DNA of 64,000 bases from a virus (IMGVR_UViG_3300015371_000009:23983-87982), one strand, 5' to 3'; counted from the first letter of the stretch, positions 11,451 to 48,548 are shown. Notes: generated from the sequence alone by a model not told the origin. Program-made: numbers and translations.

Positions 11451-12266
11451 ATGCGGCACAAGCCTAAAAAGGGCATACGACAGGTTGCAAAGGGTTGTGC
11501 CGGGGAACCCGAGGAACTTGGTCTGCAACCTGTAGCATACACTGCGGAACTTCCTGGCGATCGCCCGCCCGCCCCGGAATGGTTTGAGGCTGACGAACGC
11601 GCCGAATGGACTGCCATTGTCGACCGCATGCCTTCGGGCTGGTTTACGCGCGAGACACATCAATTGCTTGCCGAGTTGTGCACGTTGACGTGCCTGTCCC
11701 GGAAGGTGACCGAGGAGTTGCAGGCGGTTCGGCAGAGGTCGCTTTCGATCCCCGCGCACATGGCTGACTTCGGTCGGCTGACCACGATGAAAATCCGGCT
11801 GACCAGCGCGATGGCGAACGTCGCGTCGAAGCTGCGCCTGACCCATCGAAGCCGCTACGACGCGAGAGCCGCAGCCGATGCCGAAAAGAAGGGCACTCGA
11901 CACCAAAAACCGTGGGAGCTTGGGCGCGGAGATAATCCAATGGATCGAAGCCGCGTGCTTCGTCCCGGAGGGCGCGCTAGTTGGCCAGCCGCTGATTCTG
12001 GCGCCGTGGCAGCGCCGCGAGATAATCAGAATCTACGACAACCCCGCGGGGACCAGGCGCGCGATCCTGTCGTTCGGCCGCAAGAATGGCAAAACCGCGC
12101 TGGCCGCGCTGCTGATGCTGGTGCACTTGCTGGGCCCGTGCCGGCGGATCAACAGCCAACTATTCAGCACGGCTCAGAGCCGCGACCAGGCGGCGCTGAT
12201 CTTTCGGCTGGCAGCGAAAATTGTGCGCATGTCGCCGATATTGTCGGCGGCGACCGTGATCCGTGA
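11451..12266 (+). CDS. terS: Terminase small subunit
   Basis: RPPAPEW...EW..IV...LRLTHRSR...KPWE pattern and position; the frame extends into terL. Confidence 0.75.
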   Translation: MRHKPKKGIRQVAKGCAGEPEELGLQPVAYTAELPGDRPPAPEWFEADERAEWTAIVDRMPSGWFTRETHQLLAELCTLTCLSRKVTEELQAVRQRSLSIPAHMADFGRLTTMKIRLTSAMANVASKLRLTHRSRYDARAAADAEKKGTRHQKPWELGRGDNPMDRSRVLRPGGRASWPAADSGAVAAPRDNQNLRQPRGDQARDPVVRPQEWQNRAGRAADAGALAGPVPADQQPTIQHGSEPRPGGADLSAGSENCAHVADIVGGDRDP

Positions 12267-13425
12267 AGGATCGAAGCAGCTGATCTGCGAGGAGGTTGGC
12301 AGCGTCTATCGCGCACTGAGTGCCGAGGTGCCGACCGCGTTCGGCTTGTCGCCAAGCTTCACGATCCACGATGAGCTGGGCCAAGTCCGCGGTCCGCGCT
12401 ACGCGCTGTACGAAGCGCTCGAGACAGCGACCGGCGCGCAGTCCGATCCACTCTCAATCATCATCAGCACGCAAGCGCGCACCGACGCGGATTTGCTTTC
12501 GATCCTGATCGATGACGCGTTGCGCGGCGACGATCCCTCGACCGTGGTTTCGCTTTACACCGCCCCGATGGATGCCGATCCGTTTGCGCTCGAGACACTG
12601 CGGCTGGCGAACCCGGCGCTGGGCAACTTTCTCAACCCACGTGAGGTCATGGCGATGGCCGAGGATGCACGCCGCATGCCCGCGCGCGAACCGGAATTCC
12701 GCAATCTGATTCTCAATCAACGCGTGGAGGCCAACAATCCATTCGTCAAGCCGGCACTCTGGAAAGCTTGCGCCGGCGAGCCGGTCGATCTGCGCGGCCG
12801 CGAAATTTATGCCGGCCTCGATTTGTCGGAGACTTCCGACCTGACCGCGCTGGTGATCATCGGCAAGATCGACAAGGTCTGGCGCGTCCAGCCGACGTTC
12901 TGGCTGCCGGGCGTCGGCCTCGCCGACAAGGCTCGAGCCGATCGCGTGCCGTACGACACCTGGGCCAACAAAGGCTTCCTGCTGACGACGCCGGGCAAGT
13001 CGGTGGACTACGAGTTTGTTGCGCACTTCCTACGCAACGAATTGTTTGAAAAATACAAGGTCAAAAAAATTGCGTTCGATCGCTGGAATTTCAAACATCT
13101 CAAACCGTGGTTGCTCAACGCCGGGCTGAGCGAAAAGCTTGTCACTGACACGTTCGTCGAGTTCGGTCAGGGCACGCAGTCCATGTCACCGGCGCTGCGC
13201 GAGTTGGAGTCGATGATCCTTGAGCGGCAAATCCAACATCCGGATAACCCCGTGCTCAACATGTGCGCCAGCAACGCGGTCGTGGAAGGCAACGACAGCT
13301 CGAACCGCAAGCTTTCAAAGAAGCGCTCAAGCGGCCGGATCGACGGCATGGTTGCGCTTGCGATGGCCGTCGGCGTGGCGCCGCTGAAGGCGAAGGCGAT
13401 CGACATCTCGGCGCTCATTGGCTGA
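11878..13425 (+). CDS. terL: Terminase large subunit
   Basis: GRKNGKT Walker A, IHDELG Walker B, GLDLSETSDLTA and RIDGMVAL nuclease motifs. Confidence 0.95.
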   Translation: MPKRRALDTKNRGSLGAEIIQWIEAACFVPEGALVGQPLILAPWQRREIIRIYDNPAGTRRAILSFGRKNGKTALAALLMLVHLLGPCRRINSQLFSTAQSRDQAALIFRLAAKIVRMSPILSAATVIREGSKQLICEEVGSVYRALSAEVPTAFGLSPSFTIHDELGQVRGPRYALYEALETATGAQSDPLSIIISTQARTDADLLSILIDDALRGDDPSTVVSLYTAPMDADPFALETLRLANPALGNFLNPREVMAMAEDARRMPAREPEFRNLILNQRVEANNPFVKPALWKACAGEPVDLRGREIYAGLDLSETSDLTALVIIGKIDKVWRVQPTFWLPGVGLADKARADRVPYDTWANKGFLLTTPGKSVDYEFVAHFLRNELFEKYKVKKIAFDRWNFKHLKPWLLNAGLSEKLVTDTFVEFGQGTQSMSPALRELESMILERQIQHPDNPVLNMCASNAVVEGNDSSNRKLSKKRSSGRIDGMVALAMAVGVAPLKAKAIDISALIG

Positions 13426-16705: not shown

Positions 16706-16885
16706 ATGAACGACTGGCGCCCGATCGACAGCGCGCCGCGTGACGGCACGGAAGTCTACTTGCATTTGAATTTTCCGAACGGCGTCCCGGCCTACTGGGA
16801 CCGTGAGCTGAAGACTTGGGTTTTGTGTCGGCCGCTGCACATCGAGTCGCTGCGCGAGCCGAAAGCCTGGAGGCCTAAGCCATGA
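16706..16885 (+). CDS. Small phage protein (WxPIxxAPxDG type)
   Basis: [12 protein letters not shown] motif. Confidence 0.65.
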
Positions 16886-17502
16886 TCGTCTGGCTGCTGA
16901 CTGTCACGCTCAAAGCCAACGCGGTGCTCGGGCTCGGCGGCATCGCCACCGAAGCCGAATGCAAACGGCTGGCGCCGCTGATCGAGCAAGGTGCCCCCTA
17001 CACTTGCATCCAGTACGATGCCGCAAATCTCGGCGCCGGCATGCAAGGCCCGCCCGGTCCGCAAGGCCCCGCCGGTCCGCCCGGTCCGACCGGCACAACC
17101 GGCGCTCGCGGTGCCACCGGTCCGGCCGGTCCAACCGGTCCCACTGGAACTGCTGGGCCTGTCGGTCCCGAAGGTGATCCCGGTCCGCAAGGCATCGCCG
17201 GCCCGGTTGGTCCCAAGGGCAACACCGGCGCGACCGGTCCCGCCGGTTCTGTCGGGCCGATCGGTCCGCAAGGCGTCGCTGGCGCGAAGGGTGATGTCGG
17301 GCCCGTTGGTCCAGTTGGTCCGATGGGGCCGCAAGGTCCGGAAGGGCCGCAGGGTCCGCCGGGTCCTGCCGGCAGCGGCACCGGCGCGAGCTTGCCGGCG
17401 CAGCCGAAAGCCGAATGTCTCTGGAGTGGCACGGCCTGGGTCTGCAAGGAAACAGCTCAATACCTGACCGACGAACCAACGCCACCACCGCCAGCAAAAT
17501 GA
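16882..17502 (+). CDS. Collagen-like protein
   Basis: Continuous Gly-X-Y run flanked by Cys-containing ends. Confidence 0.85.
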
Positions 17503-21196: not shown

Positions 21197-21814
21197 TTAT
21201 TTTCGGTGCTGTTTCAGCCGATCCAGGGCGTTAACCATGGGTTCCGCCAGTCTGGCGCCCTCGGCCGGATCGAGCTGCTGGCCATGGCGCCAATATTCGA
21301 CCTTGCGATAGGGCTTGCGCGGCTGGAGGTGGCGCACGACGGGAATGCCGGCGACGAAGTCGTTGATCCAGCGCGGTTGGCCTATGAACATCACCGCGAC
21401 AAACAGCTCCGGCCGGGTCGGGTCCATGGTCTGGTCGAATAGCAGGCCGGCGGCCTTGCGCGCCTCGGGGGTCAGCGTCTTATCGTCGATCCGCCTGCTG
21501 TAACTCGGCGCCGCAAGATACGGGCAGGCCTGCAGCGCGTAATGCACGCATTCGTCATGCATCGGCGGGTCGATATAGGCGCCGCGCGCGTGGAACGCCG
21601 AACCCGGTCCGCCGACCAGCCAGCGGCCGCGCAACAGCCGCTGGCCGCAGATCGGACAGCGGTCCTGCACGATGACCCGCTGGCGCGCCGCTTCGTTGTT
21701 GATGGTGAAGTGCGGCCGGCCGTCGGTGCCGCGCAGCACGGTCACCGGAATCGGATAGCCGCGGGCGTCGCGCTCCAGCTTAGCCATGCGGTCGGGAATG
21801 CGGATGGCGGTCAT
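21197..21814 (-). CDS. Conserved-looking phage protein with Cys/His motifs (island 3)
   Basis: RGYPIP...CPICG...PPMHDEC...ACPYL. Confidence 0.75.
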   Translation of the reverse strand: MTAIRIPDRMAKLERDARGYPIPVTVLRGTDGRPHFTINNEAARQRVIVQDRCPICGQRLLRGRWLVGGPGSAFHARGAYIDPPMHDECVHYALQACPYLAAPSYSRRIDDKTLTPEARKAAGLLFDQTMDPTRPELFVAVMFIGQPRWINDFVAGIPVVRHLQPRKPYRKVEYWRHGQQLDPAEGARLAEPMVNALDRLKQHRK

Positions 21815-22047
21815 GGCCGATTGCAAAGGCCGGCGGCCTTGCTGACTTCGTCCCAGGAGGCATCCCACAGCGCGCGGGCGCCGTTGCGGTCCTCCTCCAG
21901 CTCGACGCGGCGCACGCGGCCGCCGCTGTAGCTGATGCCGTCGCGGGCGTATTCCATCGCCGCGGTGTAGGTGTGGAACGACGTGTCACGGTCGACGGAG
22001 CCGTTGGCGAAATGCACGGCGATGACGTAGCGCTTGCGGTGGATCAT
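21811..22047 (-). CDS. Hypothetical protein (island 3)
   Basis: ATGA overlaps. Confidence 0.6.
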   Translation of the reverse strand: MIHRKRYVIAVHFANGSVDRDTSFHTYTAAMEYARDGISYSGGRVRRVELEEDRNGARALWDASWDEVSKAAGLCNRP

Positions 22048-22259
22048 GGCTTCACCAGCGACGCGATTGCCACTAGGCCGATGAACTTGCCTTCAAGGCT
22101 CTCGACAAAGCAGTGGCCCATGGCGCCGATCGGCGGGCAGCCGTAGGGCGTGCAGACCCGCACCTTGGTGCCATTGGCCGGAGTGTTGGACTTGCGATCG
22201 CAGATGTCCCAGCCGGAGGCCTTGAACGTCCAGACCGATCCTTTGCGCGGCTTTTTCAT
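22044..22259 (-). CDS. Hypothetical protein (island 3)
   Basis: GAGGAG RBS; PYGCPP...MGHC. Confidence 0.7.
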   Translation of the reverse strand: MKKPRKGSVWTFKASGWDICDRKSNTPANGTKVRVCTPYGCPPIGAMGHCFVESLEGKFIGLVAIASLVKP

Positions 22260-22284
22260 TTCGGATTCTCCTCTGTTCACCTCC

Positions 22285-22348
22285 TATATAGGCCAAACGG
22301 GCAGATAGGTCAATATGGCCGGTGTAATAAATTCAGGCCAGAATGGCC
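22285..22348 (-). promoter_or_regulatory. Promoter (copy 3) with three palindromic boxes in a divergent region
   Basis: ATTGAC-N5-box-TATATA; perfect boxes at 22308-22320 and 22336-22348. Confidence 0.8.
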
Positions 22349-22365
22349 TTTATGTTGAATGGCTT

Positions 22366-23841
22366 GTGGCCAGGGAACTGGCGGAGCGCACGCTGGCGCG
22401 GCTGCGCGAGAAGTTCGATCCGAACCAGCCGCGCGACGAAGACGGCAAATGGACCGACTCCGGAGGCGGCGGTGGCGGTGGCAAGCCGCCGCCGCAGGGC
22501 GAGCTATTCCCCGGCAAGTTTCCGCCGATCCCGGAGCCGGGCAAGCCGGTCAAAGATGACGACTTCAAAGACAAGGTGAAGCTCAGCAGCCGGCTCAGCG
22601 ATGAGAAAAAGCAGCGACTTTTCCAGGAATGGAATACGCGGGTGAAGGAGCCGCCGGAGGAATTCCGCCGCGAGTTCATGGGCGGGCTCGACGGCACGAT
22701 GACGATCGGACTCGGTCCCGAAGATGAATGGGTGATCGAAGGCAAGATCACCGATGCCGCCGGCAACACCATCGGCACCTACAGTCGCGAAATCAATTTC
22801 GAGCGCGGCCAGGCGGAGAGCGCGTACTTCAAATTGAACGCCGACCAGACCGGCAAGGACGTCGGCAAGAAAATGTTGGCGGCCAACGTCGCCAAATATC
22901 AGGAGCTGGGACTGACCGAGGTCAGGGTGCACGCCAACATCGATGTCGGCGGTTATGCCTGGGCAAAATACGGCTACGTGCCAGACGAAGGTTCGTGGCG
23001 CGATCTATCGTCGGAATTGTCCGACAAGCTCGGCGGCGGTGGCGGCTACAAGCCGGAGAGCTGGGACGAAATCTCGAGCGATCAGCAGGATGCGATCTAT
23101 CGCGCTTGGCGCGACTCGACCTACGACGAATTCTATGACAGCGAAGTCGAAAGCTGGCGCGACAGCGACCAGCCGCTCGAGGACATGAAAAAGAAGCTGG
23201 CCGAGGACTTCGACAAGGGCGATGCCTGGGCGGTTGCGGCGGTGCAAGCGTGGCGCGAAAGCCGGCCGGCTGATCGGCCGCCGCTGACTCTCAGCAACGA
23301 TGAAATCCTCAACGCCACCGATGTCAGCTATGAGCCGGCGCGCAGCTCGACACGGGTCGGCCAGAATGATCCGGACATTTACGTCAAGGAGAACATCACG
23401 CCGACGTTGACCGATGACGATCGCGCCGAGATTTCCGACAAGCTGGTCGACGCGTTCAATGCCAAGGCCGAGGCCGACGCGCCCGACATGGACCCGCCGG
23501 ATTACGTGGCCGAAGGCGTCGCCGATCGACAGAGCGAATACTGGGATTCAATGCGGGACCGCGACAAGTATCGCTGGGCCGATGACAACGGTTACGTCGA
23601 GGAAACCGAGAGCGACAGCGACATCGAAAACGCCGACGAGCTGCGCGATCTGATCGACAGCAGCGATCCGAAAGCGATTTGGGCGATCGCCGATACACCG
23701 GGCGGCAAGGAATTGCTGCTCGGCACCGACTGGAACGGCACGATCGATCTGACCGACAAAGAAACCATGGCGCGGTTCAATGCCTACATCGGCAAAGCCA
23801 AGCAAAGCGAGCGAGCTGTTCCAAGCCAATCCGCGGCGTGA
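22366..23841 (+). CDS. Putative virion effector 1: PRD tag plus GNAT-like domain with acidic insert
   Basis: KFDPNQPRDEDGKWTDSGGGG tag; FKLNADQTGKDVGKK...ANIDVGGYAWAKYG. Start uncertain (GTG 22366 or ATG 22315). Confidence 0.65.
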   Translation: MARELAERTLARLREKFDPNQPRDEDGKWTDSGGGGGGGKPPPQGELFPGKFPPIPEPGKPVKDDDFKDKVKLSSRLSDEKKQRLFQEWNTRVKEPPEEFRREFMGGLDGTMTIGLGPEDEWVIEGKITDAAGNTIGTYSREINFERGQAESAYFKLNADQTGKDVGKKMLAANVAKYQELGLTEVRVHANIDVGGYAWAKYGYVPDEGSWRDLSSELSDKLGGGGGYKPESWDEISSDQQDAIYRAWRDSTYDEFYDSEVESWRDSDQPLEDMKKKLAEDFDKGDAWAVAAVQAWRESRPADRPPLTLSNDEILNATDVSYEPARSSTRVGQNDPDIYVKENITPTLTDDDRAEISDKLVDAFNAKAEADAPDMDPPDYVAEGVADRQSEYWDSMRDRDKYRWADDNGYVEETESDSDIENADELRDLIDSSDPKAIWAIADTPGGKELLLGTDWNGTIDLTDKETMARFNAYIGKAKQSERAVPSQSAA

Positions 23842-25003
23842 CGCGGAGCTGCACGAATCGATCCTTGAGGCCGGCGACGCCGACGCGGCGACCGCGGTCG
23901 GCCAGGCGGTGGCGGCAAGATTGCTCGGGCCGGAGCGCGCCGCGCGATTGTTCGGCAAGCAGCCGGCGAAGGCCAAGGCGTGGAGCCAAAAAGAAACCAA
24001 CGCCCACACCGACTGGATGAACGAATGCGTTCCCAAGCTGATGGGTTTTGGCAAGGAGCAGGATGTTGCGATTGCCGCTTGCTTGAACATGTGGCGCGAC
24101 GCCTGGGAGGAAGCACACCCCGACGGCGCTCCCGATCCAGGACCGTCGCCGCCGCAGGCGGATGAGAAAACCCACGCCATCGCCCAGCAGCTGCTCAAGG
24201 CCTACGACGAGTCAGAACATCCGCGCGACGATCACGGCCGCTGGACCGATGCCGGCGGCGGTGGTGGAGCTGAGGCGGCGCCCGCCGTCGGCATGAGCCA
24301 CGAAAAGATTCAGGCGGCGATCAAAAACGTCGCCAAGTATCACGACTTTGATCCTGGCCGCATCGAAATCAGTGATGGCGAGCACAACTTCGAACTTGGC
24401 GGGACCGCGCGCAGCGCGGCTGGTGTTGCCTATACCAGCAAGGTTACGTCATATGGCACGCAGCGGCCGGGCGACACGCTGATCACGATTTACAGTCGAC
24501 ACGTCACGCCGGAAACCGTCGAAGGCGTGATTTCGCATGAGATTGAGCACATCAAATTTCAGCACGCGTTGAAGCGCCACAAGCTCGAATGGAATGCGGT
24601 CAATGCGCTGGCTGTGCCGACTGATGACCTGATGTACGCCGATGGCCGGCTGAAGCCGCCATACGATGAAAAATATCCGGCCTATCAGGCGATCGAGACT
24701 GCTTTTTATATGCCCAGCACTGAGCAATTTGCTGCGGCCGATGGCGTGTCGAATTACAGCTACGATTGGTGGCTCGAGCAGCGCGCCAACAACGCGACCA
24801 AAGTCCAGACGGCTCACGAAACGCTCGCGGAGATGGCGCGGATCAAATACGAGAGCGGCAAATTTCCGGATCACATGGGTGAACGGATTCTCTCCTGGCG
24901 CGGCGAGGACAACAAACCATCCCAGGCTGAGATTGCCGCCAACGCCAAACTCTGGCGCGACCTTTACCGCGCGGTCGACAAGGTTTGGAAAATGCCGCCA
25001 TGA
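23780..25003 (+). CDS. Putative virion effector 2: Cys domain, PRD tag and zincin metallopeptidase
   Basis: KAYDESEHPRDDHGRWTDAGGGG tag; HEIEH at 24536-24550; VSNYS...HETLAE. Confidence 0.7.
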   Translation: MPTSAKPSKASELFQANPRRDAELHESILEAGDADAATAVGQAVAARLLGPERAARLFGKQPAKAKAWSQKETNAHTDWMNECVPKLMGFGKEQDVAIAACLNMWRDAWEEAHPDGAPDPGPSPPQADEKTHAIAQQLLKAYDESEHPRDDHGRWTDAGGGGGAEAAPAVGMSHEKIQAAIKNVAKYHDFDPGRIEISDGEHNFELGGTARSAAGVAYTSKVTSYGTQRPGDTLITIYSRHVTPETVEGVISHEIEHIKFQHALKRHKLEWNAVNALAVPTDDLMYADGRLKPPYDEKYPAYQAIETAFYMPSTEQFAAADGVSNYSYDWWLEQRANNATKVQTAHETLAEMARIKYESGKFPDHMGERILSWRGEDNKPSQAEIAANAKLWRDLYRAVDKVWKMPP

Positions 25004-26631
25004 TCGAAACCACCACGGTCAACGGCCGGCCGGCGCACGTCGCCTATATCGATGACAAGCATCAGCCGGTCGAGCCGGCGAAGGCGACGCTGATCAAGGT
25101 GCTGTTCGCTGACGAACAAGGTGGCATCGTTTACCTGGTTGGCGACGGCGCCCGTCCAGAAAAGGCGAATGGCAAGGCCGGTCATGTTGGCCTATATAAC
25201 AAGGCTGCGTGGGATGAAAACGAGCACCCGCGCGCGCCAGCCGGTTCGCCGGATGGCGGGCAATTCGTAGGAGGTGGCGGTGCCGGTGGAGGACAAGGAA
25301 CTGGAAGCCAAGCTTCGAAGCCTGACGCCGCGGCAACAGGAGCTGGTGCGCGAGGTCATGCAGGACCACCCGACTCTTACGTTCGAGGAAGCCCTGGAGA
25401 TGCTGAAAAGCGCGGGCATGTAGTCGCGGTCTACACGCCGTCGGCGGCGCAGCTCGCCGCCGCCAAGCAAGCCCAACGCACCCCGCAGACATTCCACGCG
25501 CTGGCGCCCGCAGGCGCCGACAAGTTCTACGCCGCCATCACCGAAGCCAAAGCCGCCGACACCAAATACGGCTCATCGGTGCACGTCTACGACGCCGAAG
25601 CCTACAAGGGCATGAGCCTGTTCCTGACGGCCGACGGCAAGTCGGGATTTGCGCTCAAAGGCAACGACATCGTGTCGTGCTTCAAGCACCCGGCCTCGAC
25701 TGCCGAAGGCTTTGCCGACGAAGCGCTCGGACTGGCGACGCAGCTCGGCGGCCGCACCCTCGACGCCTTCGATACCGTGCTGCCGCAGCTCTACAGCAAG
25801 AGCGGTTTCCGCGCGGTGGCGCGCATCCCGTGGAACGACGAACACAAGCCCGACGGCTGGAATTACGACGCCTACAAGAAATTCAAGGATGGCCGGCCAG
25901 ACGTCGTGTTCATGATCTACGACCCGGCCAACGCCAAGCGCTACAAGCCGGGCGATGGTCGCACTTACGGCAGCTACGATGACGCGTCACGCGCCCAGCA
26001 TCGCGCGCTTGATGACGTGGCGGTCAACACCGCGGTCACCTCGACCAAAGAACGCTGGTACTCGGCATCGCCGTTCAAGGGCAACCTTGCCGGCGCGATG
26101 GCCGCGGCGCCGGTGGCGCAAGCGCAGCTGGGCCCGGTCGGTGAGGCGATCGCCAAAAAGTACGGCGTGGTGTTCAAAAATCCCGGCGTCAAAAAGGACG
26201 TCGCGCGCATCCAGCAAAAGGTCGCCGATCGCGGCGGCGTCGAGCGCGTCACCGATCTAGCGCGCGCCACGTTCCTGATCCGGACACCGGAGCAAGCCGA
26301 AGCGATCGCCACCGAACTCGGCAAGCATTTCGAGGTGGCGGTCGAGCCGTGGCGCATCACCGACGTCAACTACGCCGATCGCGCAATCCAGGTCAGATTC
26401 AAGGGCGGGCTGATTGGTGAGGTGCTGGTAATGGACGCCGACATGGCGCACGCCAAGTCACCGGATGGCGGCGGCGGCCATGACCTCTACGTCGAGCAGC
26501 GCAAGCTTGATCCGGTGAAAGATGCAAAGCGCTGGCAGGAGCTGCACAAGCAGCAGCAAGCGCTCTACGGCCACGTGCTGGACAATTATTCGCGGCCCTG
26601 GAAAGCCGCCTTGGGCATCGAAGGCAGCTGA
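25000..26631 (+). CDS. Putative virion effector 3: HPR tag, GNAT-like domain and RelA/SpoT-like synthetase
   Basis: KAAWDENEHPRAPAGSPDGGQF tag; GGRTLDAFDTVLPQLYSKSGF; VKK..RI..K...DLARA...NYAD...GEV...AK...GHDLY. Confidence 0.7.
   Translation: MIETTTVNGRPAHVAYIDDKHQPVEPAKATLIKVLFADEQGGIVYLVGDGARPEKANGKAGHVGLYNKAAWDENEHPRAPAGSPDGGQFVGGGGAGGGQGTGSQASKPDAAATGAGARGHAGPPDSYVRGSPGDAEKRGHVVAVYTPSAAQLAAAKQAQRTPQTFHALAPAGADKFYAAITEAKAADTKYGSSVHVYDAEAYKGMSLFLTADGKSGFALKGNDIVSCFKHPASTAEGFADEALGLATQLGGRTLDAFDTVLPQLYSKSGFRAVARIPWNDEHKPDGWNYDAYKKFKDGRPDVVFMIYDPANAKRYKPGDGRTYGSYDDASRAQHRALDDVAVNTAVTSTKERWYSASPFKGNLAGAMAAAPVAQAQLGPVGEAIAKKYGVVFKNPGVKKDVARIQQKVADRGGVERVTDLARATFLIRTPEQAEAIATELGKHFEVAVEPWRITDVNYADRAIQVRFKGGLIGEVLVMDADMAHAKSPDGGGGHDLYVEQRKLDPVKDAKRWQELHKQQQALYGHVLDNYSRPWKAALGIEGS
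25169..25198 (+). promoter_or_regulatory. Intragenic copy of the promoter/box motif
   Basis: GGTCATGTTGGCC-TATATA at 25180-25198; the -35 is degenerate. Confidence 0.55.
25280..25423 (+). CDS. Nested +1-frame 47-aa helical protein (candidate antitoxin)
   Basis: AGGAGG-N5-GTG; MPVEDKELEAKLRSLTPRQQELVREVMQDHPTLTFEEALEMLKSAGM. Confidence 0.65.
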   Translation: MPVEDKELEAKLRSLTPRQQELVREVMQDHPTLTFEEALEMLKSAGM

Positions 26632-26798
26632 GGATAGCTGGCGCGGAAGTTGGCTTCCGACATCGGTCGAACGAACTGGGTGACTTCGGCGAGGTTCAGC
26701 TGGCGCCAACCTTCGCCGCGATCGAACGTCACCCAGGCCTCACGATCGTCGTAGACGCAAGGGTGACCCTCGAACGTGCCGTAGTTTTGCGTGGTCAT
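26586..26798 (-). CDS. Small protein overlapping the 3' end of effector 3 (candidate immunity)
   Basis: AGGAAG RBS; convergent 46-nt overlap with the synthetase gene. Confidence 0.6.
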   Translation of the reverse strand: MTTQNYGTFEGHPCVYDDREAWVTFDRGEGWRQLNLAEVTQFVRPMSEANFRASYPQLPSMPKAAFQGRE

Positions 26799-26833
26799 GT
26801 TCATCTTCCTGGACGATCCATAGTAGCAGACCA

Positions 26834-44888: not shown

Positions 44889-47800
44889 ATGCACCGCGCC
44901 ACTCCGCTCAACAGTTCGTTCCGCGCCTACTCGGCCGGCGGCAGCCGTTCCGTCGTGCACGAAGTCGACGACAGCAAGTTGATGCAGGAGAGCAAATCAA
45001 ACTTCATGGCCAACGAGACTCGCGAGAAGATCGAGTCGCCGCAGAATTACGGTTTCACGTCGGTGACCGCCGACGGCGAGAAGGGCCAGGACGGCAAGCT
45101 CAGCAAGGGGCCCGAAGCCTTCATGAGCTTCATAGGGGGCAATCGCTCGCACCCGATTGCCTCGATCATGGATGATCGCCGGCACCGGTTGTTCAATCTG
45201 ATCAAGGACGCTGCCAAAGGCTCGACCGCGATGTTCGGCCTCAAGGAGTGGGGCCAGCAGCTGCTCAACACCGACCTTGGCTGGTTTTTGACCGGCAACA
45301 TTGAAAAGAAAATTCGTTTGCAGCTGGTCAAAAATCAGAACGGCCAGCAGCAGACCCAGCAGGGCGGCCAGCCCAAATTGGCCCGCACGTTCCGCTCACC
45401 GCATTCCGGCGTCGAATTCGAAATTGAGACATTCGAAATTGCGGAGGAGCTTGCAACGCCAAAGGCAACCAACGGCGGCGGCACTGGCACAAGCAACGGC
45501 AGCGGCCAGCAAGGCACCAGCAAGCCGACCGGCCAGAAGACCCTGCACAAGGAAGAAAGCAAAGTTTACGTCGAACTCACCAAGAGCGCGACCACCATCA
45601 AAACGGATGGGCAGACGCAGTTTCAAGCCGCCAAGCATGCTCGGATTGGGCCGACCTACCGTGATGGCGATACCTACACTAAAGGTATTGAGCATGCGAT
45701 TGATCATGTCGCTGGCGGTAGTGCCAGCGTAACGCCGACTGGTGACTGGAGTGCAAGCGGGACACCCGGCAATGTTTCCTTGCTCGATGTTGGTCAGCGG
45801 GTTGCTGCCCTTGAGGCTGGTGGCGGGGGCGGAGGCGGTGGCGGCACGGTGACCGGCGCGACCCCGCCACTGGCGATCAGTGGCGACGGCACCAGCATGT
45901 CGCTCGCCATGGTGGCGCCGCTCTACGTCAACGGCAGCAACCAGCAGGCGGTGGCGATCGACGGATCGAGCATCGTCATCAACGGCAGCAATCAGCTCGC
46001 CGCGACGCCGCCGTGGACCAGCATCAGCGGCAAGCCGTCGACGTTCCCGCCGTCGCCGCACACCCATCCGTCGACCGACATCACCGACTTTGCTGAGGCG
46101 GTGGATGACCGGGTCGGCGGATTGATCGTCGGCGGCACCAACATCGCGCTGTCGTACAACGACGCGGCCAACACGCTGACCATCAACTCGACTGCGATCG
46201 GCCTGACTGACGGCGACAAGGGCGACATCATCGTTTCGAGCGGTGGGGCGACATGGCTGTTCGATCCCGCCGTGGTCACCAGCGCCGGCCGCGCGCTGAT
46301 CGATGACGCTGACGCGACTACCCAGCGCACGACGCTCGGGCTCGGCAACGTCGACAACACCAGCGACCTGAACAAGCCGGTTTCGACGGCAACCCAAACC
46401 GCGCTCAACACCAAGGAGGACAAGACCAACAAGGGCATCGCCAACGGCTACGCGTCGCTTGACTCCGGCGCCAAGGTGCCGGCCGCACAGCTGCCAAGCT
46501 ATGTCGACGATGTGCAGGAGTTCGCCAACCTCGCCGCGTTCCCGGCGACCGGTTCGACCGGCATCATCTATGTCGCGTTGGACACCGGCAAAATCTATCG
46601 CTGGTCGGGCTCGGCCTATGTCGAAATTTCACCGTCACCTGGTTCAACCGACTCGGTGCCGGAGGGCTCGACCAATCTCTACTTCACCAACGAGCGCGTG
46701 GACGATCGGGTCGCGGTGCTGGTCCAGAACGGCACCGGCATCACCTGGACCTACAACGACGCATCGAACACGTTCACGCCGACGGTCACGCTCGCGCCGT
46801 TCTCCACTACGAACTTGGCCGAGGGCGCAAACCTTTACTACACCGACGCGCGGGTGGCGGCGGCTCCGGGCGTAGTCAACAAGCAACCGCTCGACAGCAC
46901 GCTGACAGCGCTCGCTGGGCTCGACGCCACGACGGGACTGGTCGAGGAAACCGGCGCCGACACCTTCGCCAAGCGCGCGATCGGGGTTGCGGCCGGCACC
47001 AGCATCCCGACGCGCGCGGACGCGGACGCGCGCTACGCGGCCACGGTCCACACCCATGTCGCCGCCAACATCACGGATTTTTCCGAGGCCGTGGACGATC
47101 GCGTCGGCTCGTTCCTGGTCGCCGGCAGCAACGTCACGCTGACCTATGACGACGCCGCAAATACGCTGACGATCAGCTCGACGGCGAGCGGTGGTGGTGC
47201 CGCCACCGCGATCGCCGATACGCCGCCCGGTAGCCCTACGGCGGGGCAGCTGTGGTGGGAGTCGGACAGCGGCGTTCTGTGGATTTACTATACCGACGCC
47301 AATTCATCGCAGTGGGTCCAGGTCGCCGGCAACAGCGTTACAAAAACCTATGTGGACGCCCAGGACGCGCTGAAGCTCAACCTGACCGGCGGGACGCTGA
47401 CCGGAAAATTGAATCTGCCGGCAAGCACAACGAGTGCCGCGCCGCTCAATTTGGGGCAAGGCAACGCGCCGACCACTCCGGTCAACGGTGATCTGATTTC
47501 GACCACCGGCGGCAAATTGATTCATCGCACCAACAATGTGACGTACAACATCGCGTTCGAAAGCTATGTCGATGCCGGCGATGCCAACTTGGCCAACAGC
47601 AGGGTCGCCAAGGCCGGTGACACGATGACCGGCAATCTGCAAATCAGCAACACGCAACCGACGCTGACGCTCAACAAAGCAGCGAGCGGGCAATACAATC
47701 TGATCGCCGGTCTTACCAACGGCACTTATCGTTGGCGGATTGATCTTGGCGACGGCAACGCCGAGAGCGGCAGCAATGCCGGGTCGCATTTCGCGATCAA

Positions 47801-48548
47801 TCGTTGCGCTGACAATGGAAATTTGATTGACGCGCCGCTCTCGATCAATCGCACGAATGCCGCCGCGACGTTAACTGGCACTCTGACGGTCAATGGCAAC
47901 GTACTCTACATGGCCAGCGGCGCCCGCTACCTACAGTGGGACGGCACTTATTTCAATTTCAACGGGCACGTTCGTGCGCAAGGCGCCAATTTCTACGGCG
48001 GTGGTTTGATCGAGGTCACCACGACGATCAACACTAGTCTCGGCGCGTATCGCGCAAACTACGCGAACTTTGGTCCCGCGCCATCATGGGCTGGTTCGGT
48101 CACGACCAGGTGGGACAGCGCATCCAGTCAGGCCGGCATGTCGTTTCACGACATCCAGGGCGGCCTAGCGATCTACACTATGTTTCTTGGTTCATCGGGC
48201 AGCCAGCTTGGCTACATCGCTGGCAATGGCACTGGAATTACATACGCAACTGCCAGCGATTTGCGGCTCAAGGACAACGCGCAGCCGTTTGATGCCGGTC
48301 CGCTGATCGACGCACTAAACCCGGTCCATCACAACTGGAAAGAACACCCCGACGTTTGGGACTACGGCTTGATGGCGCAAGAGGTCAACGAAGTGCTGCC
48401 GCGCGCCGTTGAACCGCCGCGCAAAAGTCCGGACGGCGAGAGCGAAAGCCCGTGGATGCTCGACTACAGCAAGTTCGTGCCGCTGCTGCTGCAAGAGGTG
48501 AAGGACTTGCGGGCGCGAGTTGCCGCGCTTGAGGCCGCCAGACACTGA
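44889..48548 (+). CDS. Baseplate spike (Mu gp45-like) fused to a long fibre with C-terminal S74-like intramolecular chaperone
   Basis: QNYGFTS...GGNRSH...DDRRHR N-terminus; internal repeats; SDLRLKDN...GLMAQEV...LDYSKFVPLL. Confidence 0.82.
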   Translation: MHRATPLNSSFRAYSAGGSRSVVHEVDDSKLMQESKSNFMANETREKIESPQNYGFTSVTADGEKGQDGKLSKGPEAFMSFIGGNRSHPIASIMDDRRHRLFNLIKDAAKGSTAMFGLKEWGQQLLNTDLGWFLTGNIEKKIRLQLVKNQNGQQQTQQGGQPKLARTFRSPHSGVEFEIETFEIAEELATPKATNGGGTGTSNGSGQQGTSKPTGQKTLHKEESKVYVELTKSATTIKTDGQTQFQAAKHARIGPTYRDGDTYTKGIEHAIDHVAGGSASVTPTGDWSASGTPGNVSLLDVGQRVAALEAGGGGGGGGGTVTGATPPLAISGDGTSMSLAMVAPLYVNGSNQQAVAIDGSSIVINGSNQLAATPPWTSISGKPSTFPPSPHTHPSTDITDFAEAVDDRVGGLIVGGTNIALSYNDAANTLTINSTAIGLTDGDKGDIIVSSGGATWLFDPAVVTSAGRALIDDADATTQRTTLGLGNVDNTSDLNKPVSTATQTALNTKEDKTNKGIANGYASLDSGAKVPAAQLPSYVDDVQEFANLAAFPATGSTGIIYVALDTGKIYRWSGSAYVEISPSPGSTDSVPEGSTNLYFTNERVDDRVAVLVQNGTGITWTYNDASNTFTPTVTLAPFSTTNLAEGANLYYTDARVAAAPGVVNKQPLDSTLTALAGLDATTGLVEETGADTFAKRAIGVAAGTSIPTRADADARYAATVHTHVAANITDFSEAVDDRVGSFLVAGSNVTLTYDDAANTLTISSTASGGGAATAIADTPPGSPTAGQLWWESDSGVLWIYYTDANSSQWVQVAGNSVTKTYVDAQDALKLNLTGGTLTGKLNLPASTTSAAPLNLGQGNAPTTPVNGDLISTTGGKLIHRTNNVTYNIAFESYVDAGDANLANSRVAKAGDTMTGNLQISNTQPTLTLNKAASGQYNLIAGLTNGTYRWRIDLGDGNAESGSNAGSHFAINRCADNGNLIDAPLSINRTNAAATLTGTLTVNGNVLYMASGARYLQWDGTYFNFNGHVRAQGANFYGGGLIEVTTTINTSLGAYRANYANFGPAPSWAGSVTTRWDSASSQAGMSFHDIQGGLAIYTMFLGSSGSQLGYIAGNGTGITYATASDLRLKDNAQPFDAGPLIDALNPVHHNWKEHPDVWDYGLMAQEVNEVLPRAVEPPRKSPDGESESPWMLDYSKFVPLLLQEVKDLRARVAALEAARH

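Follow-up and report, generated by a model that had tools for sequence, protein, structure and literature searches.

The 64,000-nucleotide stretch of viral DNA analyzed here (IMGVR_UViG_3300015371_000009:23983-87982; hereafter the window) contains three overlapping genes, between positions 22315 and 26631, each of which carries the same kind of short peptide tag ahead of predicted enzyme modules. The locus raises the question of what a shared tag does at the head of such modules in a phage. We lean, though not strongly, towards the view that the three genes constitute a split, MuF-less polyvalent protein of the phage type, i.e., an array of cargo enzymes for the capsid interior in which the tag acts as a header that marks each protein for the prohead interior and probably for processing.

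A peptide tag shared by three coupled genes

Gene 1 (P0001; 22315-23841, plus strand) encodes a protein of 508 amino acids (aa) in which a 33-aa leader precedes the tag, a Gly run and a GNAT-like domain with a large helical insertion. Gene 2 (P0002; 23780-25003, plus strand) encodes 407 aa and comprises a leader (residues 1-60), an N-terminal motif of the prohead-protease type, a Pro-rich stretch, the tag and a HEXXH zincin-like domain. Gene 3 (P0003; plus strand) runs from a TTG codon at 24985 (548 aa) or an ATG codon at 25000 to position 26631, and encodes a leader of about 70 aa, a long variant of the tag, a GNAT-like module and a RelA/SpoT-homologue (RSH), Tas1-like module. Genes 1 and 2 overlap by 62 bases, and genes 2 and 3 by 19 bases, or by 4 if the ATG is used; the latter, which forms an ATGA overlap with the stop codon of gene 2, is the more likely start. 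A programmed frameshift joining the three open reading frames (ORFs) was considered and rejected, since homologues of gene 2 (P0004 and P0007) start independently at the same point. These independent starts, together with the ATGA overlap of gene 3, argue for separate but coupled genes.

As the initial annotation had described, a tag is present in each of the three genes: KFDPNQPRDEDGKWTDSGGGGGGG in gene 1 (22411-22482, plus strand), KAYDESEHPRDDHGRWTDAGGGGG in gene 2 (24197-24268, plus strand) and the long variant KAAWDENEHPRAPAGSPDGGQFVGGGG in gene 3 (25201-25281, plus strand), with scores of 57.7, 71 and 44.9 bits, respectively, to a tag profile built on an alignment of 14 tags (A2). The regular expression (regex) [FYW]D.{2,5}[QH]PR.{2,10}G.[WF] gave three matches in the six frames of the window, all of them in genes 1-3, compared to a mean of 0.01 and a maximum of 1 in 200 mononucleotide shuffles. 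The profile likewise matched these three sites and no other in the complete 87,982-bp genome. The long variant was also found in three further proteins (P0009, P0074 and P0120). The mean DNA identity of the three tags is 68%, without a long identical tract. Because this is no more than the peptide itself imposes, a main function of the tags as recombination sites was set aside.

The tag has no counterpart among Pfam, PHROG or NCBIfam models, and its profile found only a chance match (E 1.9) among PDB sequences. A literature search, in which peptide strings were included and supplements and subscription journals lay outside the scope, returned no description of it; the tag family appears to be large and undescribed. 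The genome also lacks a recognizable MuF domain, as had been stated beforehand: a six-frame search of the whole genome with PF04233 gave nothing at E ≤ 1, while the same search was positive in 8 of 14 control genomes, and none of the three cargo proteins showed a MuF Pfam match at E ≤ 0.1. Genes 1-3 therefore do not possess the N-terminal MuF domain that characterizes MuF polymorphic toxins.

Spread and anatomy of the tag family

When residues 118-172 of gene 2 served as the query in a word-indexed search, the 92 candidates included 11 other proteins in which the tag is followed by GNAT, ADP-ribosyltransferase, FAD oxidoreductase, other zincins or the same Tas1-like module. With the profile, 1,337 proteins were found at E ≤ 1 among 8,000 candidates scored, and an exhaustive HMMER search of 1.84 billion representatives yielded 3,617 proteins at E ≤ 0.001, 655 at ≤ 1e-10 and 44 at ≤ 1e-30. 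The largest number of copies in one protein was 20 matched stretches over 7,334 aa. The Pfam families predicted on the tag matches form the repertoire of polyvalent proteins, with ART-PolyVal, ADPrib_exo_Tox, zeta toxin, 2'-5' RNA ligase, topoisomerase IB, GNAT, NUDIX, ParB, DUF7178 and PF23474 (Acb1); head families, namely MuF, portal, S78 protease and capsid, are found among the matches as well. The portability of the tag ahead of many unrelated enzyme modules, which had been proposed from the window, was thus borne out by the profile and by the catalog of downstream domains across phages, and the cargo types correspond, as anticipated, to those reported for MuF toxins and polyvalent proteins.

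The anatomy of the tag was determined in 130 proteins with 426 regex tags, 127 of these proteins being from outside the window. In 126 of the 127, the last tag is followed by 68 residues or more, and in 69 the first tag starts at most 60 residues from the N-terminus. Successive tags are spaced by a median of 242 residues (n = 296), and in a set of 847 tags 31 start within the first 13 residues. These positions, together with the domain-sized spacing, indicate that the tag is a header, present once per module. It covers approximately 25 residues, usually with a Lys followed by [FYW]-(D/S)-x2-4-[QH]-P-R-x3-8-G-x-[WF]-(T) and then a Gly-rich run, and its core occurs as K-Y-S-P/D-D-Q-P-R-D-x-x-G-R-W-T, as K-[FWY]-D-E-S-E/K-H-P-R-D-x-x-G-R-[WF]-T or in a longer form, H-P-R-x-P-x-G-S-P-x-G-G-Q-F.

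According to the initial annotation, the HK97 protease cleaves after Lys, and the Lys of the tag would be a junction at which the prohead protease exposes a loading or ejection signal. A Lys or Arg was indeed found one or two places ahead of the aromatic residue in 553 of 847 tags, compared to 22% expected. However, its frequency was alike in N-terminal (21 of 31) and internal tags (532 of 816), and the Lys as a mark of internal junctions only was therefore rejected; the basic residue looks like a part of the motif rather than a junction marker.

Stand-alone proteins of about 130-175 aa were observed in four loci (L031:9983-10516, L033:9983-10468, L034:2810-3205 and L038:9977-10375). They begin with M-A-(N/D)-F-D-E-S-K-H-P-R-D-D-D-G-K-F, their ORFs directly follow a Shine-Dalgarno-like GGA(C)GG, and their C-terminal parts differ; as predicted proteins they are the minimal 'tag plus cargo' form. 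Since the M-A-N-F-D-E-S-K-H-P-R starts have no Lys, and nothing ahead of them to remove, an address fits better than a tag that needs to be exposed.

These features bear on a different explanation, according to which the header is a processing site only, the polyprotein being cut there by the prohead protease or by a co-travelling zincin (metallopeptidase- or MPTase-like) module, with the stand-alone copies as cassette relics. The excess of Lys and Arg is in line with it, as are tags that lie between modules already tethered to portal, MuF or protease, where no address is needed. Against it, the 31 tags close to the N-terminus and the four stand-alone ones at residue 4 leave nothing useful to cut off, and the conserved core, at about 14 residues, is longer than expected of a simple cleavage site. 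We consider processing alone to be an unlikely function of the header.

Association of tagged modules with head proteins

The C-terminus of the portal and the N-terminal extension of the capsid protein face the prohead interior. In all five tag-bearing portal fusions (P0040, P0095, L024, L018 and L032), the tags are located C-terminal to the portal domain, and in P0120 two tags and an oxidoreductase stand N-terminal to an S78 protease and a capsid domain. Given the interior-facing ends of these fusion partners, the tagged modules would be placed inside the prohead. Further, an HK97-family protease (108 bits vs. a cut-off of 59) is flanked by tags on both sides in P0133, and seven MuF fusion proteins contain regex tags.

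A protein of about 950 aa from another locus (L013:1408-4266) is a fusion of the protease-capsid type with a header at about residue 9, an extra module and the Cys motif treated below. It starts with M-A-E-P-G-A-K-D-W-D-E-G-K-H-P-R and ends with the C-terminal sequence of the capsid protein of the window phage, and in it, by prediction, the cargo is a direct part of the capsid polyprotein. Two tag-bearing polyvalent proteins (L018:1407-6218 and L047:5630-10840), one of which is fused to portal and MuF, contain Acb1 (anti-CBASS) domains (PF23474, E about 1e-34); with Acb1 inside a head-fused tagged protein, phages may deliver an anti-CBASS nuclease along with their DNA.

The proteins encoded by genes 1-3 were divided into seven segments, all of which recur, reordered, in other tag-bearing proteins of 600-2,000 aa, which also contain ART-PolyVal, zeta toxin, DUF7178 and other domains. 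Of 41 viral loci retrieved by the tag, many of them fragments, 37 contained a tagged ORF and 15 had two to seven consecutive tagged genes. When 214 ORFs from 20 of the 41 were scanned against Pfam, a terminase, portal, MuF, scaffold, protease or capsid gene was detected in 15. Three loci (L007, L019 and L028) are close relatives, with protease-capsid fusions that are 54-67% identical to that of the window, a prohead protease (S78)-scaffold-major capsid protein fusion of the HK97 type (P0134; 752 aa; 29120-31378, plus strand). Their gene order is that of a large terminase (TerL) followed by tagged cargo directly upstream of the protease-capsid fusion, with the portal next in L007 and L019.

The same data allow a second alternative to be weighed, in which the header is a docking peptide only and remains uncut, binding to a conserved surface of the scaffold or of the inside of HK97-fold shells, like encapsulin peptides or the T4 and P1 sequences. 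Its design, a short conserved peptide with a flexible Gly linker and variable cargo, and its N-terminal position on small stand-alone proteins would agree with such a role, for which the passages of PMC9024508 considered here provide precedents, since foreign proteins enter capsids when they carry the T4 capsid targeting sequence (CTS) or the 30 N-terminal residues of P1 DarB. However, docking leaves one tag per module in tethered polyproteins (up to 20 tags) unexplained, the phages that carry the tag differ in their portal and protease families so that a single docking surface is not evident, and among PDB sequences the profile found no solved structure with the tag. Docking alone is, in our judgment, quite improbable.

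Cargo folds of genes 1 and 3

No Pfam family, GNAT models included, matched genes 1 and 3 at E ≤ 0.1, and both were therefore folded from alignments of homologous modules. The AlphaFold2 (AF2) model of gene 1 residues 58-508 had a predicted local distance difference test score (pLDDT) of 84.2. Foldseek matched it only to GNAT proteins (3f0a, E 9.4e-4), and the best 50 matches of the VIA-wide search were all acetyltransferases (4ua3_B, Z 8.8, root-mean-square deviation 4.0, 143 residues aligned), with Z values that are middling by the tool's own note. The structural alignments span model residues 39-432 with only about 110-145 residues aligned, and the GNAT fold therefore seems to be interrupted; within the region encoded at 22486-23838, a helical insertion of approximately 230 residues seems to split it.

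The model of gene 3 residues 106-548 (pLDDT 91.2, predicted template modeling score 0.77) comprises two domains and gave 39 PDB matches at E ≤ 0.001, mostly small alarmone synthetase (SAS)/Rel proteins and some GNAT chains. The GNAT-like module (25378-25920, plus strand) was matched by Foldseek to 2zw4_A (E 1.8e-4) and 1ghe_B (E 1.0e-3), and the RSH (small alarmone synthetase/Tas1-like) module (25975-26613, plus strand) to Tas1 (6ox6_A, E 5.1e-8, TMt 0.66, 23% identity). Further matches of the latter were 8vx3, an exported small alarmone synthetase, then SAS1/SAS2, and also 6fgj and 5ded. According to the models, a GNAT fold is present in genes 1 and 3, and the C-terminal module of gene 3 has an RSH synthetase fold of the nucleotidyltransferase type. 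Model and fold search thus agree with the cargo originally assigned to both genes, GNAT-like in gene 1 and GNAT-like plus RelA/SpoT-like in gene 3.

Two motifs that we take to be the catalytic motifs of RSH synthetases were inspected in ten homologous synthetase modules. A T-D-x-A-R-x-x-F-type motif is present in nine of them and E-[VI]-Q in seven, the window copy reading G-E-V-L-V instead of the latter. The GNAT-like module of gene 3 is approximately 50% identical to the C-terminus of gp4, the 'minor capsid protein' of Microbacterium phage UtzChips, whose gene adjoins the portal gene, and is homologous (E 3e-70) to residues 62-292 of P0120, the tagged fusion with an S78 protease and a capsid domain described above.

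A small HD-domain protein resembling the hydrolase half of SpoT/RelA (phrog_990, E 7e-28; TIGR00691 positions 2-68, E 1.1e-8) is encoded at 28108-28548 on the minus strand, 1.5 kb downstream of the Tas1-like module and on the opposite strand to it, and has an LLHDVIEDT motif. Its homologues occur in two other loci (L015 and L022), both of which also encode a synthetase-like module. The HD protein may be an antidote to the synthetase module of gene 3, i.e., an alarmone hydrolase for the producing cell.

The zincin-like module and a second shared peptide in gene 2

The metal-binding motif of gene 2, HEIEH, is located at 24536-24550 (plus strand; residues 253-257), and HExxH is conserved in 13 of 13 homologous modules. 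By contrast, support from profiles and folds was weak: Peptidase_M48 matched with an E of 0.028, below the family cut-off, LoiP with an E of 0.0012, far below its cut-off, and the structural neighbors in the Atlas (M48/M56/Mx1) were 'under the bar'. Of the zincin proposed for gene 2, the motif was thus upheld more firmly than the fold, and the module is likely a zincin metallopeptidase (MPTase-like). It recurs in the clade of the window (window, L007, L008, L019 and L022), as would suit a cutter of its own cargo under processing alone, and processing of polyvalent proteins by MPTase domains has been proposed (Iyer 2017, PMC5512222, in the parts of the article considered). However, of the 41 loci fetched, only about 7 had a zincin homologue, which speaks against this alternative, although many of the loci are fragments.

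Gene 2 contains a second shared peptide upstream of its tag. A Cys-containing motif at 24002-24100 (plus strand; residues 75-107), AHTDWMNECVPKLMGFGKEQDVAIAACLNMWRD, is common to the N-terminus of the protease-capsid fusion, where its counterpart lies at 29147-29248 (plus strand). In BLASTP, residues 75-107 of gene 2 and 10-43 of the fusion were identical in 18 of 34 positions (53%, E 2e-11), and the window contains only these two copies of the motif, which spans about 34 residues and reads D-[FW]-M-x-x-C-V-P-x-[LM]-M-G-x-G-K...D-x-A-[VI]-A-A-C-x-x-M-[FW]-R-D. A looser version, EEFMADC...CKLIW, was noticed further along the fusion. When residues 1-60 of the fusion were searched against the database, 57 other proteins were recovered from 61 candidates. 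S78 protease and/or capsid fusions make up almost all of them; one is a ClpP-type and one an XkdF-type protease. The Cys motif may be a prohead-entry element, and as an apparent prohead-protease signature upstream of the tag in gene 2 it is an independent hint of entry into the prohead.

A proposed role of the header as a combined address and processing signal

Tags inside tethered polyproteins favor processing, while an address is favored by the small stand-alone proteins that have a ribosome-binding site of their own and carry the tag from residue 4. A role that combines both, as in the T4 CTS, which the prohead protease removes from T4 internal proteins and Alt after their incorporation (PMC9024508, in the passages considered), would fit both observations. 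According to the mechanism that we propose, the header, in gene 2 together with the N-terminal motif of the prohead-protease type, would bring the protein into the assembling prohead, where the HK97-type protease fused to the capsid protein, a candidate reader or carrier for the cargo, would trim or separate the modules at or near the header; separation at this point is most plausibly due to the prohead protease. The freed enzymes would then remain with the DNA, reach the host at injection and act on host targets via acetylation, proteolysis and nucleotide pyrophosphorylation. The initial annotation had likewise interpreted the tag as a loading or ejection signal, a reading that retains support from its portability, the variable cargo and the ties to portal, MuF, S78 protease and capsid, but not from the Lys as a junction marker.

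Several observations weigh against this interpretation. Firstly, 5 of the 20 scanned loci had no head gene recognizable by Pfam in the stretch fetched. Further, the regex tag is absent from the protease-capsid fusion and from the portal of the window phage. The strings FSQK-AATA (residue 431 of the fusion) and LVAK-AAEG (residue 14 of the portal), which had been pointed out as similar Lys junctions, are both present; the presumed capsid maturation site, [KR]-A-[AP]-[ST]-A-P-A-M-T, is conserved in three relatives and also tagless. As the fusion carries no tag, capsid maturation does not use it. A homologue of the GNAT-like module of gene 3 lies inside a 3,125-aa polyvalent protein of Limnohabitans phage DC33 that is tagless, and the tag is therefore not obligatory for this class. 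All three tag variants are used within the window phage, and in 3 of 224 proteins (P0188, P0041 and P0050) the HPR-type header alternates with a second one, GHxFHGNQ[YW] (GD-V-x-G-H-x-F-H-G-N-Q-[YW]). In our reading, both have the common outline H-P-x...G-x-x-[WY]-T; they appear interchangeable and are perhaps homologous. With three variants in one phage and both headers mixed in one protein, any reader would have to be tolerant. Searches by tblastn of 50,697 GenBank phage records at E ≤ 10, with the tag region and with the N-terminally tagged P0011, revealed no tag, BLAST being weak on short motifs, so no cultured model phage was identified.

Finally, approximately 2.5 kb with opposite-strand ORFs lie between the cargo array and the head genes of the window. 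This separation would also suit a third alternative, in which the products of genes 1-3 are cytoplasmic late enzymes rather than virion components and the header serves as a degradation signal, as a hinge or as a peptide that binds metal or has a regulatory function. With its many Asp, Glu and His residues, the tag could bind metal. This alternative is at odds with the repeated fusions to interior-facing portal and capsid ends, to the prohead protease and to MuF, with the homologue of the gene 3 module within a protease-capsid polypeptide, and with the protease-type N-terminal motif on gene 2, and we regard it as very unlikely.

A bolder extension of the combined address and processing role, which we put forward tentatively and with more doubt than belief, is that the HPR-type header and its GHxFHGNQ[YW] relative constitute a near-universal capsid-cargo code of tailed phages. 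Such a code would be read by a conserved feature of the HK97-fold prohead or of the maturation protease, would suffice to load stand-alone enzymes without fusion to MuF or portal, and would set the point of release. If so, polyvalent proteins, MuF toxins and split arrays would all be built from the same tagged cassettes, and the tag could be used to program protein delivery by phages.

Phages are known to inject proteins with their DNA, but the known addressing signals (T4 CTS and P1 DarB) are specific to single phages, and polyvalent and MuF-fused effectors have so far been thought to enter by tethering. A conserved header would, if true, change this picture. Occurring on tethered polyproteins as well as on free enzymes, it would provide a sequence marker for the injected proteome of uncultured phages, anti-defense modules (Acb1) and toxin-like enzymes included, and a testable hypothesis for cargo loading and release, as well as a candidate portable tag for protein delivery by phages. 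The window offers a compact test case: the phage genome is complete (88 kb), holds only three tags and a single protease-capsid fusion, lacks MuF and encodes cargo with defined folds.

Genome setting

The window corresponds to bases 23983-87982 of a complete 87,982-bp record of an uncultured virus with direct terminal repeats. TerL (11878-13425) is encoded on the same strand as the capsid and portal genes, the portal (31748-33199, plus strand; PF04860, E 3.6e-64) being located downstream of the capsid gene; a methyltransferase gene is also present. The resulting order of head genes (11878-33199) is unusual, as accessory genes covering several kb and the cargo array follow the terminase, the protease-capsid fusion comes next and the portal last; this portal-last order is kept in the relatives L007 and L019.

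The window also encodes a contractile tail with a Mu-like baseplate. A 1,219-aa protein (44889-48548) combines an N-terminus like the Mu gp45 baseplate spike, fiber-like repeats and a C-terminal S74 intramolecular chaperone domain. Two collagen-repeat proteins were observed (32961-34631 and 16882-17502), the first of which (556 aa) is encoded in a different frame from the portal gene, whose 3' end it overlaps; L019 shows this arrangement as well. A tyrosine integrase lies outside the window (G000:C1:13359-13874; PF00589, 48 bits), and the phage is therefore probably temperate.

Proteins with an N-terminus like that of the protease-capsid fusion bear the source names Bradyrhizobium, Rhizobiales and Xanthobacteraceae, which suggests an alphaproteobacterial host. 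Among GenBank phages, no megablast match was obtained for 22000-32000 and no tblastn match for genes 1 and 2, and a search of genome contigs with the protease-capsid fusion returned a single distant fragment. A promoter and terminator scan of 21500-29300 revealed nothing exceeding shuffled sequences.

Comparison with known systems

The C-terminal module of gene 3 shares its fold with Tas1 and other small alarmone synthetases (6ox6, 8vx3 and 5ded), but is only 23% identical to Tas1 and has E-V-L where seven of ten homologues read E-[VI]-Q.

Encapsulin cargo-loading peptides address enzymes into an HK97-fold shell, and the HK97 protease reportedly has a capsid-targeting tail. As the header would do, both address the shell interior by way of a short peptide with a flexible linker; however, they differ from the header in sequence and in their mostly C-terminal position.

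The capsid targeting sequences of T4 and P1 (PMC9024508) are, like the header, short N-terminal peptides ahead of unrelated cargo. In contrast to these signals, which are specific to single phages, the header spans thousands of protein clusters and is repeated inside polyproteins.

Compared to MuF polymorphic toxins, the array has similar cargo. RelA-like, metallopeptidase and ART domains are common in MuF toxins (Jamet 2017, PMC5576092), and MuF-linked (p)ppApp synthetases (Apk2 toxins) have been characterized (PMC12226406), according to the parts of both articles considered; the main text of the former contains neither 'motif' nor 'cleav' nor 'linker'. The RelA-like/(p)ppApp-synthetase-like and metallopeptidase cargo, the probably temperate phage and the possible hydrolase-type antidote nearby are in line with such toxins, whereas the cargo of the window is stand-alone and its genome is without a MuF domain.

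Phage-type polyvalent proteins are predicted to be packaged and injected (Iyer 2017, PMC5512222, in the parts considered), and the words 'linker', 'glycine' and 'signature' were not found in the main text of that article. As in these proteins, effector modules (GNAT and metallopeptidase) are encoded with portal-terminase head genes, tagged relatives carry ART, zeta toxin, topoisomerase IB and 2'-5' ligase, and the same modules are found in proteins of 1,000-7,000 aa. By its sequence, the window array shares both the portal-terminase/head-gene setting and the homologous modules by which polyvalent proteins are recognized. At least two effector domains, a further mark of the class, are reached by the three-gene array as a whole and only in part by single proteins, gene 3 having two enzyme folds, gene 1 one GNAT-like domain, and gene 2 one zincin-like domain plus its N-terminal domain. 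The array differs from polyvalent proteins in that it is split over three coupled genes, with one or two modules each, and in that a conserved peptide heads each set of modules.

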